From Parcubacteria bacterium C7867-008 (lineage in GTDB: Bacteria; Patescibacteriota; Minisyncoccia; Phycocordibacterales; Phycocordibacteraceae), in contig LFCR01000006.1 in assembly GCA_001189215.1 (NCBI GenBank), forward strand, positions 67,550 to 131,549: a DNA stretch of 64,000 nt, given 5' to 3'. The notes under the pieces were generated by a model. It did no database searches, had not been told where the DNA came from, and saw nothing but the letters and a program-made list of their open reading frames with translations. Positions 11,912-21,813 of the stretch are shown one piece after another. Positions within the stretch are counted from its first letter, which is position 1; each line of letters begins with the position of its first letter. Position numbers and translations under genes: made by a program.

Positions 11912-12124
11912 CTATGCTCCGCGCTCGTAGCACTTACAGCTGCCTCCAAATAGCTTTGCAACACCGGTCAAGATAATAAGGCTTGGCCATACGATACGAA
12001 TGATGTCTGCCGTAAGGTACCCTGTGTTACCTGCAAGAAAAGCACCACCGAAGAGAATGATAAGTATTGGCTGAACAAGGTGATGCGGACAACGACAAGA
12101 CGAGGAAGTATTAACGTGATTCAT
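11912..12124 (-). CDS. small hypothetical membrane protein
   Basis: 70-aa ORF with two hydrophobic helices; weak support. Confidence 0.25.
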   Translation of the reverse strand: MNHVNTSSSCRCPHHLVQPILIILFGGAFLAGNTGYLTADIIRIVWPSLIILTGVAKLFGGSCKCYERGA

Positions 12125-12276
12125 GTACAGAAATTATATGTGTATAGGATTAAGAATAGCAGGGTATACAGGATGACTGTTGGGGCAGGTGGATAGTCTT
12201 GAAGATTGAAAAAATGACGGAATTGGGTAGGATGAGCAGAACGGACCTGCATAGGTTCGTTGCATGTTCTTAGTTC

Positions 12277-12539
12277 GCCGATGTAGCTCAGGGGTAGAGC
12301 AACTCCATGGTGGGCCGCAAAGCCCTGCCCACGTCTTCTGCGAAGAATTCGTGAATCCCGAATTACGGTTAATAGTCCCACAGGCCAAGACCGTGGCGTT
12401 CTAGATATGGGACGCCCGAACGACTGACAAGGGTATCTCTCGAAGATAAATATACAGTCTAGCCCTTCTCCAAGTGGTACAGGAGAGAAGGTGTAAGCGA
12501 AGGAGTAGGTCGGCAGTTCAATTCTGCCCATCGGCTCCA
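12277..12539 (+). tRNA. intron-containing tRNA, tentatively tRNA-Thr (GGU); exons 12277..12311 and 12500..12539
   Basis: Acceptor GCCGATG/CATCGGC, D-arm GCTC-AGGGGTA-GAGC, anticodon stem ACTCC/GGAGT, T-arm GGCAG-TTCAATT-CTGCC, encoded CCA. The anticodon loop is split AUGGU|AA by a 188-nt insert. Confidence 0.7.
12312..12499 (+). ncRNA. group I-like intron in the tRNA anticodon loop (after position 36)
   Basis: 5' exon ends in U (12311), which can pair with G12327 in a P1 helix (G12310-C12328, G12309-C12329; the intron 5' end GGGC pairs with GCCC). The intron ends in G (12499). Internal P4/P7-like strings (ccaagaccgtgg, acagtctag). No intron ORF. Confidence 0.6.
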
Positions 12540-12540
12540 T

Positions 12541-12861
12541 ATGACAGAGTCTAAAACAAAGGAGCACCCATTTTCCGGTAAGACCGGAAGAATCTTGGTG
12601 CTAGTGTTCACCCTCCTTTATATAGCAGCATCCGGTATTTATTTCTTCACCACGGGTGTGAAGGAATTTACGCTGTATCTTGCTGTACTGTTAGTACTCG
12701 TAGGGCTTGTTGCTTGGACCCTACCGCGCACCAGACTTCCGGTGTGGTCTCTTTGGCTCCTTTCCATTCTCGGCCTCCTCCACGCTCTTGGTGGTGGCGT
12801 ACAGGTGAATGGTGACGTTCTATATAACTTTATTCTGATTCCAATCGTTATAACGGTTTGA
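12541..12861 (+). CDS. hypothetical membrane protein, possibly the N-terminal part of a split gene
   Basis: Three TM helices; overlaps the next ORF by 4 nt in a different frame. Confidence 0.35.
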   Translation: MTESKTKEHPFSGKTGRILVLVFTLLYIAASGIYFFTTGVKEFTLYLAVLLVLVGLVAWTLPRTRLPVWSLWLLSILGLLHALGGGVQVNGDVLYNFILIPIVITV

Positions 12862-13181
12862 ATGGAATCACTCTCTGGCGCTTTGATCAGTTGGTACACC
12901 CATATGGCACTGCAGTGGCTGCACTCATTGCATACTTCTTCATTGCAAGACATGCAAAGCTTCCGCGTATCTGGATGGTTATTCTCGCAGCGTTTGTGGC
13001 AATGGGACTTGGTGCACTCAATGAAGTGATTGAGTTCATTACCAAACTCACTGTTCCTAATACAGACGTAGGTGGATACAACAACACGGCAATAGACCTC
13101 TGTACCAATATGGTCGGTGCAATTATTGGTGCTGCAATTGCTGCACTTAAGTGGGGGAAGAAGCCTCCACTTGATACTTAA
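12858..13181 (+). CDS. hypothetical membrane protein, possibly the C-terminal part of a split gene
   Basis: TTG start; TM helices; LNEVIEF motif. Confidence 0.35.
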   Translation: MNGITLWRFDQLVHPYGTAVAALIAYFFIARHAKLPRIWMVILAAFVAMGLGALNEVIEFITKLTVPNTDVGGYNNTAIDLCTNMVGAIIGAAIAALKWGKKPPLDT

Positions 13182-13217: not shown

Positions 13218-13293
13218 GCCGAGGTAGCTCAGTTGGTAGAGCAATTGCATCGTAAGCAATGGGTCGGGAGTTCAAGTCTCCCCCTCGGCTCCA
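13218..13293 (+). tRNA. tRNA-Thr (CGT)
   Basis: Acceptor GCCGAGG/CCTCGGC, anticodon arm ATTGC-ATCGTAA-GCAAT, T-arm GGGAG-TTCAAGT-CTCCC, CCA encoded. Confidence 0.9.
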
Positions 13294-13379: not shown

Positions 13380-13446
13380 GCCGGCGGTTTGGTAACGTGG
13401 AGAGCTTGGTAACTCACCCACAAGGGTTCGATCCCCTTCGTCGGCG
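13380..13446 (+). pseudogene. tRNA-like remnant with intact T-arm and 3' acceptor strand, degenerate 5' half
   Basis: AAGGG-TTCGATC-CCCTT T-arm and acceptor GCCGGCG/CGTCGGC pair well, but no D or anticodon arm can be drawn. Confidence 0.3.
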
Positions 13447-13492: not shown

Positions 13493-13530
13493 CAAGCTCG
13501 TGTTTATACCAGACGTGGGTGAGAAGGAAG

Positions 13531-13558
13531 AACGGCCGAAAGGCCGTTTTTCTTTTTT
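13531..13558 (+). terminator. intrinsic-terminator-like hairpin in the prfB 5' leader (possible attenuator)
   Basis: acggcc-gaaa-ggccgt followed by tttttctttttt, 15 nt upstream of the prfB ATG. Confidence 0.45.
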
Positions 13559-20140: not shown

Positions 20141-20211
20141 TGCGGGATCGTCTAATGGTAGGACTGCGGTTTCTGGTACCGTATATCTAGGTTCGAGTCC
20201 TAGTCCCGCAG
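20141..20211 (+). tRNA. tRNA-Gln (CTG)
   Basis: U1-A72 acceptor (TGCGGGA/TCCCGCA) typical of bacterial tRNA-Gln, D-arm GTCT/GGAC, anticodon arm GCGGT-TTCTGGT-ACCGT, T-arm CTAGG-TTCGAGT-CCTAG. Confidence 0.8.
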
Positions 20212-21813
20212 CAAGCTAGGATTTTTGGAGTAGATTTCTCCAATATCCTTTGTATTTCCTAGTTGGTTCTCTGGTTCTAACCTTGCAGAAACAGCGCGAG
20301 CTTCTTCTGCCATGTTTCTTATCGGAAATAACAGATTATCCAATGAAATGCTCAGTTTTCCGTTGGTTAGTTTGTAGTCCGAACCTAATGCAGAGAAGAT
20401 CTCCTTTTTAACACCAAGGTTCTTGTCTGTATTCGCTTTAGAGAAAACAATCGGTGCCTTCTCTGCAAAGTTAAATCCTCGCTCTGCGATCTCTAGCCAG
20501 TTCTCAACGCGTTTGTCAGTATCCTTTAAGAAAGACCATAGACGATCCTTCTCTGCGAGCAATACTTCTTTACGGCTTCGGAACTCATGTTCATCAATCT
20601 CAGAGTTTGAGCGCATATCAATCAGATTATCTATCTTCTTGAGACATGCGTCATACTCGCGGCGCTGGTTTCCAAACATCTGCTCTCGGTCTGTAATCTC
20701 CTTAGCGTTCATGTCCTTTAAACGAGCTACTGCCCATGTGGTGAACTCAGGGGGGATCTCTAGCTTGCTAAGCTCCTCAACAATCTGCTTCTGTAGTTCC
20801 TGTTCCTCAATGGCTTTCTGTGAGCAGTTAGGATCTTTCCGCTTTGTGCAGTGATAGTAGGTGTAATGAGCCACACCACCATTAGCAAGCTTCTTCCATT
20901 TCTCCTCGCCCGTTATAAGGGCATTACATTCACCGCATCGGATCGGACCACGGAAGGTAATCTCACGCTTTCCTTTAGGGCGGGGATTACTTCTTCTGCC
21001 TAGTAGGAACTGTATGCGATCAAACTCTTCACGCGTCATGAGCGGTTCGTGCGTACCTTGGTACCAAAGACCACTTCCAACAGGGTACTCAAATTCCCCG
21101 TAGTAGAACGGGCGAGTGAATAAGTTGTAGGCATTGCTACGGCTTATTTTCTTTCCGCTTGCTGCGCGTAGACCCCAGTCATTTGTAGCTATCTCTAGGA
21201 TACGGGGTGGCGTGTAATCGCCTGTCAGCATGAGGTCCACCATTTTGCGTAAGAGTGGTAGGCGTTCCGTATCGGTATAGATCCTTTTCTTACCCCGCTC
21301 TTCAAACTTATCGTTCTTATAGCCCAGCGGTGCTGGGGCAGGGTATACACCCATCTTTGCCTTCTGCTCAAGCCCGCGCTTCACATCACGGCCTTTCTTG
21401 GCACTCTCGTACTGCGATTGCGAAAGAGCCATTTGAAGCATCCAAATGCCCTCTGGGGAGTTGTTCTCAAAGTGATAGGTGGCAAACTTAAGATCGCTTA
21501 TCTCTCCTGTACGGAGTGTGTAGGTTATGGCACTTGCGTCTACCTCATTACGGGATAGGCGGTCAGGATGCCATGCCAGAAGCCCGTTGCGCTCTCCTGA
21601 GCGCATTCGTATAAGCATGTCAGCAAACTTAGGGCGATTGTAAGGAATGAAGGCACTGCGCTCCTCCTCAATAAACTCTATATCCAGATCTGCAAACATT
21701 TCAGAAAGCTTCGCCTTTTGTGCGGGTATGGAGAGTGCCTGCTTCTCCTTATCCTCAGAGGACTTTCGGAGATAGGCGAAGTATTTAGGTTTGCTCGTTT
21801 TAGCCATACTCAT
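20200..21813 (-). CDS. large serine recombinase (resolvase catalytic domain, recombinase domain, zinc ribbon)
   Basis: N-terminal YLRKSSEDKEKQ catalytic-Ser region and C-terminal CGECNA...YYHCTKRKD zinc ribbon, typical of phage and ICE large serine integrases. Confidence 0.85.
   Translation of the reverse strand: MSMAKTSKPKYFAYLRKSSEDKEKQALSIPAQKAKLSEMFADLDIEFIEEERSAFIPYNRPKFADMLIRMRSGERNGLLAWHPDRLSRNEVDASAITYTLRTGEISDLKFATYHFENNSPEGIWMLQMALSQSQYESAKKGRDVKRGLEQKAKMGVYPAPAPLGYKNDKFEERGKKRIYTDTERLPLLRKMVDLMLTGDYTPPRILEIATNDWGLRAASGKKISRSNAYNLFTRPFYYGEFEYPVGSGLWYQGTHEPLMTREEFDRIQFLLGRRSNPRPKGKREITFRGPIRCGECNALITGEEKWKKLANGGVAHYTYYHCTKRKDPNCSQKAIEEQELQKQIVEELSKLEIPPEFTTWAVARLKDMNAKEITDREQMFGNQRREYDACLKKIDNLIDMRSNSEIDEHEFRSRKEVLLAEKDRLWSFLKDTDKRVENWLEIAERGFNFAEKAPIVFSKANTDKNLGVKKEIFSALGSDYKLTNGKLSISLDNLLFPIRNMAEEARAVSARLEPENQLGNTKDIGEIYSKNPSLLRD

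Follow-up and report, generated by a model that had tools for sequence, protein, structure and literature searches.

A stretch of 64,000 nucleotides from Parcubacteria bacterium C7867-008 (hereafter the window) contains, at 12277-12539, the two halves of a tRNA gene with extra sequence between them. The locus raises the question of what this insertion is and whether a normal tRNA can be obtained across it. An initial annotation, made from the letters alone, had proposed a group I intron of the self-splicing type. The analysis described here makes it very probable that the locus is a tRNA-Thr(GGU) gene interrupted, at the junction of position 36 with A37, by a small and divergent group I intron that has no ORF, belongs to a family widespread in Patescibacteria and would splice in the manner proposed below.

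Results

The interrupted gene and its surroundings

Removal of 188 nt (12312-12499) from the anticodon loop had been suggested to restore a complete cloverleaf. The joined exons, 75 nt in length, are called as a full tRNA-Thr(ggt) by ARAGORN, with 17 of 17 pairs formed in the acceptor, anticodon and T stems. The letters of the upstream exon (12277-12311) are GCCGATG-TA-GCTC-AGGGGTA-GAGC-A-ACTCC-ATGGT and those of the downstream exon (12500-12539) are AA-GGAGT-AGGTC-GGCAG-TTCAATT-CTGCC-CATCGGC-T-CCA. G is the first base of the insert and G12499 its last, and U12311 closes the upstream exon. After splicing the anticodon GGU is followed by A37. The acceptor stem is GCCGATG/CATCGGC, and it contains both G1-C72 and C2-G71, which we take to be identity elements of tRNA-Thr. 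An intron-less tRNA-Thr(CGU), noticed earlier downstream of the locus, was found at 13218-13293. The spliced tRNA is identical to it at 63 of 76 positions (83%) but agrees with the other tRNAs of the window, for Met, Asp and Gln, at no more than 45-51. The identification of the host as tRNA-Thr(GGU), which had been tentative, is borne out by this identity and by the ARAGORN call.

Default ARAGORN and Rfam runs on the window did not report the split gene. Two antisense ORFs that had been set aside as artefacts (12121..12567 and 12134..12388) are indeed present, have no Pfam match and overlie the conserved RNA gene, and they are best regarded in the same way here. Scanning for promoters and terminators gave matches at chance level, which are uninformative.

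The genes of the window are those of a bacterium of the candidate-phyla type and include a bacterial release factor, CTP synthase and an FtsE/FtsX-like pair, besides a LOOT RNA (Rfam RF03000; 24451-24566, plus strand; 70 bits against a gathering score of 46.4). A gene for a DUF2238-like membrane protein (12541-13181, plus strand) lies next to the split tRNA as two overlapping ORFs, 12541-12861 and 12858-13181, the first of which begins 2 nt past the CCA; its apparent division may be due to a frameshift or a sequencing error. A tRNA-like remnant is present at 13380-13446 (plus strand), in the interval from the terminator that follows tRNA-Thr(CGU) to the release-factor gene. It has a 7-bp acceptor stem, a GGGTTCGATCCCC T-arm and degenerate D and anticodon arms, it is scored by RF00005 at 16.4 bits (E 0.8), and a terminator-like hairpin (13530-13557) stands 3' of it. 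Further along, tRNA-Gln (20141-20212) is adjoined by the gene of a large serine recombinase (20200-21813, minus strand), and the two together (20141-21813) could be the mark of an integrated mobile element.

Table 1. Exons, intron and structural elements of the split tRNA-Thr(GGU) gene (positions in the window).
Feature	Position	Strand	Remarks
5' exon, tRNA-Thr(GGU) positions 1-36	12277..12311	+	ends in U36 = U12311; spliced product called tRNA-Thr(ggt)
Group I intron (very probable), 188 nt, without ORF	12312..12499	+	R1 covariance model, 180.5 bits (copy in seed); family covariation
P1 and P1 extension	12309..12329	+	RNAalifold unaided; extension covaries
L1 bases complementary to last three intron bases (12497-12499)	12316..12318	+	alternative partner to J7/9
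P2 hairpin with GNRA tetraloop L2 (GCGA, 12340-12343)	12330..12353	+	both-side changes in 31-48 sequences per pair
P3 5' strand, CCC, with 12431-12433	12357..12359	+	98.2% paired
P4 (12365-12370/12389-12394) enclosing P5 (12375-12377/12383-12385), A-rich J4/5 and J5/4	12365..12394	+	covariation on A1
P6 hairpin (12395-12400/12411-12416)	12395..12416	+	compensation at 5/6 pairs, e.g. GG/CC to CC/GG, G-C to A-U
P7 5' strand: A12420, bulged C12421, G12422-G12426	12420..12426	+	99.8% paired
P3 3' strand, GGG	12431..12433	+	partner of 12357-12359
P8 hairpin	12434..12448	+	compensation at 5/5 pairs
J8/7 (12449-12454) and P7 3' strand (C12455-U12460)	12449..12460	+	near-invariant AAgAUACAGUCU block
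J7/9 dinucleotide, P9.0 partner of G12497 and C12498	12462..12463	+	97.2% paired
P9 hairpin (12464-12470/12485-12491)	12464..12491	+	compensation at 6/7 pairs
3' tail: G12497, C12498, terminal G12499	12497..12499	+	terminal G in 106/106 among the matches listed
3' exon, tRNA positions 37-76	12500..12539	+	encoded CCA at 12537-12539

Distribution of the split gene

One genome per GTDB species was scanned with a pattern consisting of the tRNA D-arm and an anticodon loop xUGGU followed by G, which constrains the exon and leaves the intron free. At least 119 loci were obtained. It was found that a tRNA-Thr(GGU) split by an insert at the same site is present in at least 106 GTDB species genomes, the 3' half of the tRNA lying 176-266 nt downstream and forming 16-17 of the 17 stem pairs. 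This recurrence places the split gene far beyond chance. The earlier reading that the insertion lies after anticodon position 36, at site 36/37, is supported. The last base of the insert is G in 106 of 106 split genes among the matches listed, in agreement with the earlier reading of the terminal G (G12499) as a feature of group I introns. Introns of the same family as that of the window, 176-266 nt in size, are carried by at least 104 of these genes. One match (L094) was an artefact of neighbouring tRNA-Thr gene copies and was rejected.

Among the matches listed, nearly all hosts of the family are Patescibacteria, with Kaiser-, Wolfe-, Jorgensen-, Moranii-, Harrison-, Azam-, Pacei- and Saccharibacteria represented among other lineages, and the close relatives of the interrupted tRNA of the window are all in genome bins of Patescibacteria. 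A few hosts are bins labelled Gammaproteobacteria or Bdellovibrionales, and one is a cultured member of the Bacteroidota, Niastella populi. The copy in N. populi CCTCC AB 208238 (contig NZ_LWBP01000002.1, L034:5234-5414) is a family member at 189.7 bits and could have been acquired by horizontal transfer.

A second lineage of introns, 218 nt long, occupies the same site of tRNA-Thr(GGU) outside the Patescibacteria, in Crenalkalicoccus roseus (L101:2505-2722) and in a Bacillaceae MAG (L007:4081-4298). Its sequence, with the core GUAGAGACUGGACGG ... GGGACAGUCC, is unrelated to the family of the window; it lacks the core motifs and has the 3' end ...GGGAUG. The covariance model of the Thr family (R1, see below) gave no match on L007 and Rfam at gathering score gave none on L007 or L101; RF00028 scored this lineage at only 20.5 bits (E 0.004).

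Secondary structure of the intron

The tRNA is split, the insertion belongs to a conserved family and its helices show covariation. The alignment used (A1) was made with MAFFT from 73 copies less than 80% identical. An invariant core is broken in it by variable hairpins, and this core reads GAAUCCCGAAUaACGGUuAA ... AAGACCGUgGCg ... cGCcCGAACGACUGACAAGGG ... AAgAUACAGUCUAg. The layout, and the R- and S-like blocks GAACGACUGACA and AAAUAUACAGUC, agree with the classical consensus of the group I core. RNAalifold, run on A1 unaided, gave P1, P2, P4, P5, P6, P7, P8 and P9. To this fold the full P1-P9 model adds the P3 pseudoknot and the outer pair of P7 with bulged C12421. With the pseudoknots included, 92.9% of the cells of A1 are paired, as against 77.3% after shuffling of columns (0 of 500 shuffles reach the observed value), and compensatory changes on both sides are seen in 36 of 54 model pairs. 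Pairing falls to 29-46% when the partner columns are slid by 1-3. The P3-P9 core expected of a group I intron can be folded, therefore, and it is accompanied by covariation.

In P1 the exon bases G12309, G12310 and U12311 pair with C12329, C12328 and G12327, the U12311·G12327 pair standing at the 5' splice site. The extension of P1 joins 12312-12315 (GGGC) to 12322-12325 (GCCC), with U12326 bulged and 12316-12321 as the loop L1. The P1 of the initial annotation, with its wobble at G12327 and its GGGC/GCCC strands, was right in substance; the bulge at U12326 and the pairing of exon G12309 and G12310 are to be added to it. The U·G pair is present in 73 of 73 copies of A1; as the search pattern itself demanded the exon U and the anticodon GGU, their invariance is not independent evidence. 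The guide sequence GCC, which lay outside the pattern, is also invariant in A1. A bulged pyrimidine adjoining the U·G pair is unusual. P10 amounts to at most about one pair, as A12500 can pair with U12326 and A12501 faces C12325.

The three pairs of P3 all show compensation from CG to UA (in 1, 7 and 1 sequences of A1), and the middle pair is UA in 12 sequences on the model-based alignment. P4 is near-invariant and 100% paired, and P5 is compensated at 3 of 3 pairs (A1). The inner pairs of P7 are invariant in A1, and its outer pair, A12420-U12460, changes once from A-U to G-C. The helix has the same bulged form as in tRNA-Tyr introns that are positive with RF00028, and G12422-C12459, the pair beside the bulge, is the predicted guanosine-binding pair. 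A canonical P9.0 (G12462-C12498 and C12463-G12497) was found by a mutual-information scan and by counts. Its pairing stands at 97.2%, both sides have changed in 42 cells and no slid control exceeds 49%; the counts are GC 51, AU 21 and GU 1 at one pair and CG 39, UA 21 and UG 8 at the other. P3 and P9.0 are both absent from model R1, yet both hold on the model-based alignment.

The same type of scan revealed that the second base of the GNRA loop L2 covaries with the P8 pair 12436/12446. L2 of the form GAAA co-occurs with a GCUAA...UAUGC motif resembling the 11-nt receptor. This suggests a tertiary contact between L2 and P8, and such docking in the Thr family would presumably resemble that of the Azoarcus intron.

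Several other pairings were considered and rejected. A first guess for P7, CUAGAU (12402-07) with GUCUAG (12457-62), and one for P3, GUCCC (12376-80) with GGGAC (12409-13), left no room for P4-P6, and the segments concerned proved to belong to P6 and P5. GCCCU or UGCCC (12322-12330) as partners in P3 were discarded, as this block is the invariant guide sequence of P1. RNAalifold also placed a nested pairing of U12356, C12357 and C12358 with exon G12502, G12503 and A12504, which shows zero compensatory change. In the 8 cases with U in place of C12358 the exon base is still G, while 7 of them have A at 12432, the partner in P3.

Covariance models

A covariance model, R1, was built from A1 (206 positions, 48 pairs). 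On the 64-kb window it gave a single match, 12307-12506, at 180.5 bits (E ~1e-53), a score that is partly by construction as the copy of the window is in the seed. Run on the window and 99 loci, it recovered family members from the loci, 87 in full length and 5 truncated by the contig. Five weaker matches (21.7-34.9 bits, E 3e-8 to 3e-4) are introns in tRNA-Tyr(GUA) genes, at L013:7668-7864, L046:7202-7405, L076:7037-7260, L053:949-1162 and L059:11-216, in Patescibacteria genomes that also carry the Thr family. With RF00028 three of these introns reach 61.7, 54.6 and 47 bits, and two of the values exceed its cutoff of 50. The alignment with R1 spans P2, P4, P6, P7, P8, J8/7 and P9. RF00028 thus works on such introns, and the Thr family can be matched to bona fide group I introns one helix after another.

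RF00028 itself gave no group I match on 12200-12620 of the window, either at gathering score or with E up to 10; only YrlA and tRNA fragments appeared, at chance level. No Thr-family copy among those tested was matched at gathering score, and the copy in L076 reached a sub-threshold 26.9 bits. Absence of a score from the covariance model, which had been named beforehand as part of a refutation, is literally what RF00028 gives for the copy of the window; the fold of the family covaries and is linked by R1 to tRNA-Tyr introns, three of which RF00028 does detect. RF00028 is a detection tool and not a defining property, and its silence does not refute group I identity. It was not taken as a refutation because a P3-P9 core folds with covariation, because RF00028 works on the tRNA-Tyr introns and because the same miss is documented (PMC13011429).

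Two partners for the 3' tail

The tail of the intron can also pair with L1, through G12317-C12498 and C12318-G12497, with C12316 opposite G12499. This pairing is formed in 92.0% of cases and both of its sides have changed in 26 cells; the controls, in which phylogeny is ignored, stay at or below 36% when slid. In 63 of 87 introns the dinucleotide of L1 is also that of J7/9. Read as L1, J7/9 and tail, the combinations are GC/GC/GC in 39, GU/GU/AC in 14, AC/AC/GU in 6 and AU/AU/AU in 4, and the state of the tail changes about 16 times on a neighbour-joining tree. The L1-tail and P9.0 pairings are mutually exclusive. We tentatively suggest, from this pattern of covariation, that the tail may act as a switch, in which, ahead of the first step, a 3-bp pseudoknot with L1 would bar G12499 from the guanosine site and P9.0 would deliver it after 5' cleavage, thereby ordering splicing; it is an idea that we hold to be possible and still rather doubtful. 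Such dual pairing was not found described in the literature checked, by a search that was not exhaustive.

Discussion

Proposed course of splicing

From the established chemistry of group I introns, we infer catalysis, the use of guanosine and the order of events as follows. The intron would fold to a group I core in which the P3-P8 and P4-P6 domains are joined through the P3/P7 pseudoknot. GGU, the last three bases of the exon, would pair with the guide G12327, C12328 and C12329, setting U12311·G12327 at the 5' splice site, and a free guanosine bound at G12422-C12459 of P7 would attack after U12311. P9.0 (G12462 and C12463 with G12497 and C12498) would then bring the terminal G12499 into the same site. 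The freed 3'-OH of U12311 would attack after G12499 and join U36 to A37, leaving a normal tRNA-Thr. Because P10 gives at most about one pair, the exons would be kept together mainly by the 5-bp anticodon stem of the tRNA itself, which probably substitutes for P10. In the Anabaena pre-tRNA the anticodon stem is reported to do so (reference 29 in PMC13011429).

Relationship to published tRNA introns

Introns at 36/37 of tRNA-Thr(GGU) are listed for three complete genomes of Patescibacteria in Table 1 of Nakagawa et al., mSystems 2026 (PMC13011429). The idea that tRNA-Thr was a novel host of introns in bacteria must accordingly be given up. In that account these introns are named 'divergent group I introns' and are detected by the gpI_bact_tRNA model of tFind; RF00028 and ARAGORN fail on them, ARAGORN calling two as Arg(GCG) 34/35 (PMC13011429). 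tFind, with 21 intron settings, is described in a preprint (Williams 2020). The classification given by Nakagawa et al. places the Thr introns in the IA clade, on a long branch, and assigns zero tRNA introns of Patescibacteria to IC (PMC13011429). The subgroup IC3 that the initial annotation had expected does not agree with this classification. The published introns resemble that of the window in host tRNA, site, phylum, the RF00028 miss, the ARAGORN miscall as Arg(GCG) and similar size, the match being one of description. The intron of the window is another member of this published family, and the identity of its host tRNA is not new. L031 (CP011209.1), a complete genome of Wolfebacteria, may be among the three published genomes.

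The introns at 35/36 of tRNA-Asn, tRNA-Asp and tRNA-Tyr in Patescibacteria, which belong to IA, share with the Thr family the architecture and the core motifs ACGGU...ACCGUGG, GACU.A.A and AUA.AGUC. In both, P2 and P9 carry GNRA loops and a P9.0 is present, and R1 cross-matches the tRNA-Tyr copies. They differ in being inserted one base earlier, in being matched by RF00028 (47-62 bits) and in having a short P1 that lacks an extension loop pairing to the 3' tail. The tRNA-Ile(CAU) intron of Azoarcus and the bacterial tRNA-Arg(CCU) introns are like that of the window in their site (36/37), in their length of about 200 nt, in the lack of an ORF and in a minimal P1-P9 core; they are IC3, whereas the Thr family is published as IA and not IC.

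Alternative explanations

The intron could be derived from group I and yet need a protein partner, or could splice poorly in vivo. It is very small, 188 nt in a family of 176-266, its periphery is minimal, P10 is all but absent, and its sequence is divergent enough to escape RF00028; the splicing assays reported by Nakagawa et al. were on the Asn and Asp introns at 35/36 only (PMC13011429). Yet the elements of the catalytic core are all conserved and covarying, the tetraloop/receptor covariation between L2 and P8 suggests a self-sufficient fold and the intron encodes no gene. Moreover the related Asn and Asp introns, similar in size, both self-splice in vitro (PMC13011429). Dependence on a protein, or poor splicing, is on these grounds unlikely, and self-splicing of the intron of the window is a well-grounded expectation. 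A different placing of the boundaries would give tRNA-Arg(GCG) with an intron at 34/35 (12310-12497). With the option -i ARAGORN does report tRNA-Arg(gcg), placing an intron of 188 nt at position 34, and the G on both sides makes the boundary formally ambiguous. This reading was rejected because the tail varies among homologues, because it covaries with J7/9 and because the exon would not end in U. In homologues the insert ends in GCG, ACG, AUG or GUG, which would put Arg or His anticodons on one and the same tRNA body, and the 34/35 boundary would often make the intron end in A. The two disputed bases covary with J7/9 as intron bases, and an exon ending in G would leave no U·G pair. The body of the tRNA is, besides, 83% identical to tRNA-Thr(CGU), and the same ARAGORN miscall is corrected in Table 1 of PMC13011429. 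A tRNA-Arg(GCG) is hardly credible here.

A tRNA pseudogene disrupted by a decayed or unrelated insertion might also be missed by standard annotation tools, as this gene is. Its exons and intron core are conserved over about 100 species-level genomes, however, with compensation in every variable helix, and a pseudogene would not keep base pairing. A tRNA-Thr(GGU) is, in addition, probably needed for the ACC and ACU codons. We therefore hold a pseudogene to be very improbable. An archaeal-type bulge-helix-bulge intron or a group II intron was raised only for the silence of RF00028, and nothing specific speaks for either. The junctions of bulge-helix-bulge tRNA introns lie in 3-nt bulges flanking a 4-bp helix, and their usual site is 37/38. 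Here the 5' junction is inside P1, the 3' junction comes after P9.0 instead of in 3-nt bulges, and insertion is at 36/37; the gene content of the window is that of a bacterium, and the close relatives among the matches listed are all Patescibacteria. A group II intron would be far larger than 188 nt. The probability left to these two types is negligible. A group I intron in tRNA-Thr(GGU) is the reading that we retain.

Significance

To the published family the present study adds a wider distribution, a covariation-backed structure with coordinates in the window, a cultured host and the dual pairing of the 3' tail. The published Thr(GGU) introns are given for three genomes, in a listing that carries no structural detail (PMC13011429), whereas here the family is seen in at least 104 species-level genomes, including that of one cultured member of the Bacteroidota. 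Its distribution is far wider than the three genomes and covers Parcubacteria, Saccharibacteria and other Patescibacteria. Niastella populi, being cultured, offers an experimental handle on splicing in this family. As the split tRNA-Thr(GGU) goes unseen by default ARAGORN and Rfam, genomes that have it seem short of a threonine isoacceptor or get a false tRNA-Arg(GCG), and a missed or miscalled tRNA of this kind distorts the completeness estimates of candidate-phyla genomes. Should the dual pairing of the 3' tail be real, it would have a bearing on the way in which group I introns keep their two steps in sequence; a switch of the tail, if true, would be a built-in RNA device ordering the two steps in the most widespread tRNA intron of Patescibacteria. 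If the interrupted gene is the sole source of the GGU isoacceptor, as would appear to be the case, these reduced genomes would rely on the activity of a ribozyme.
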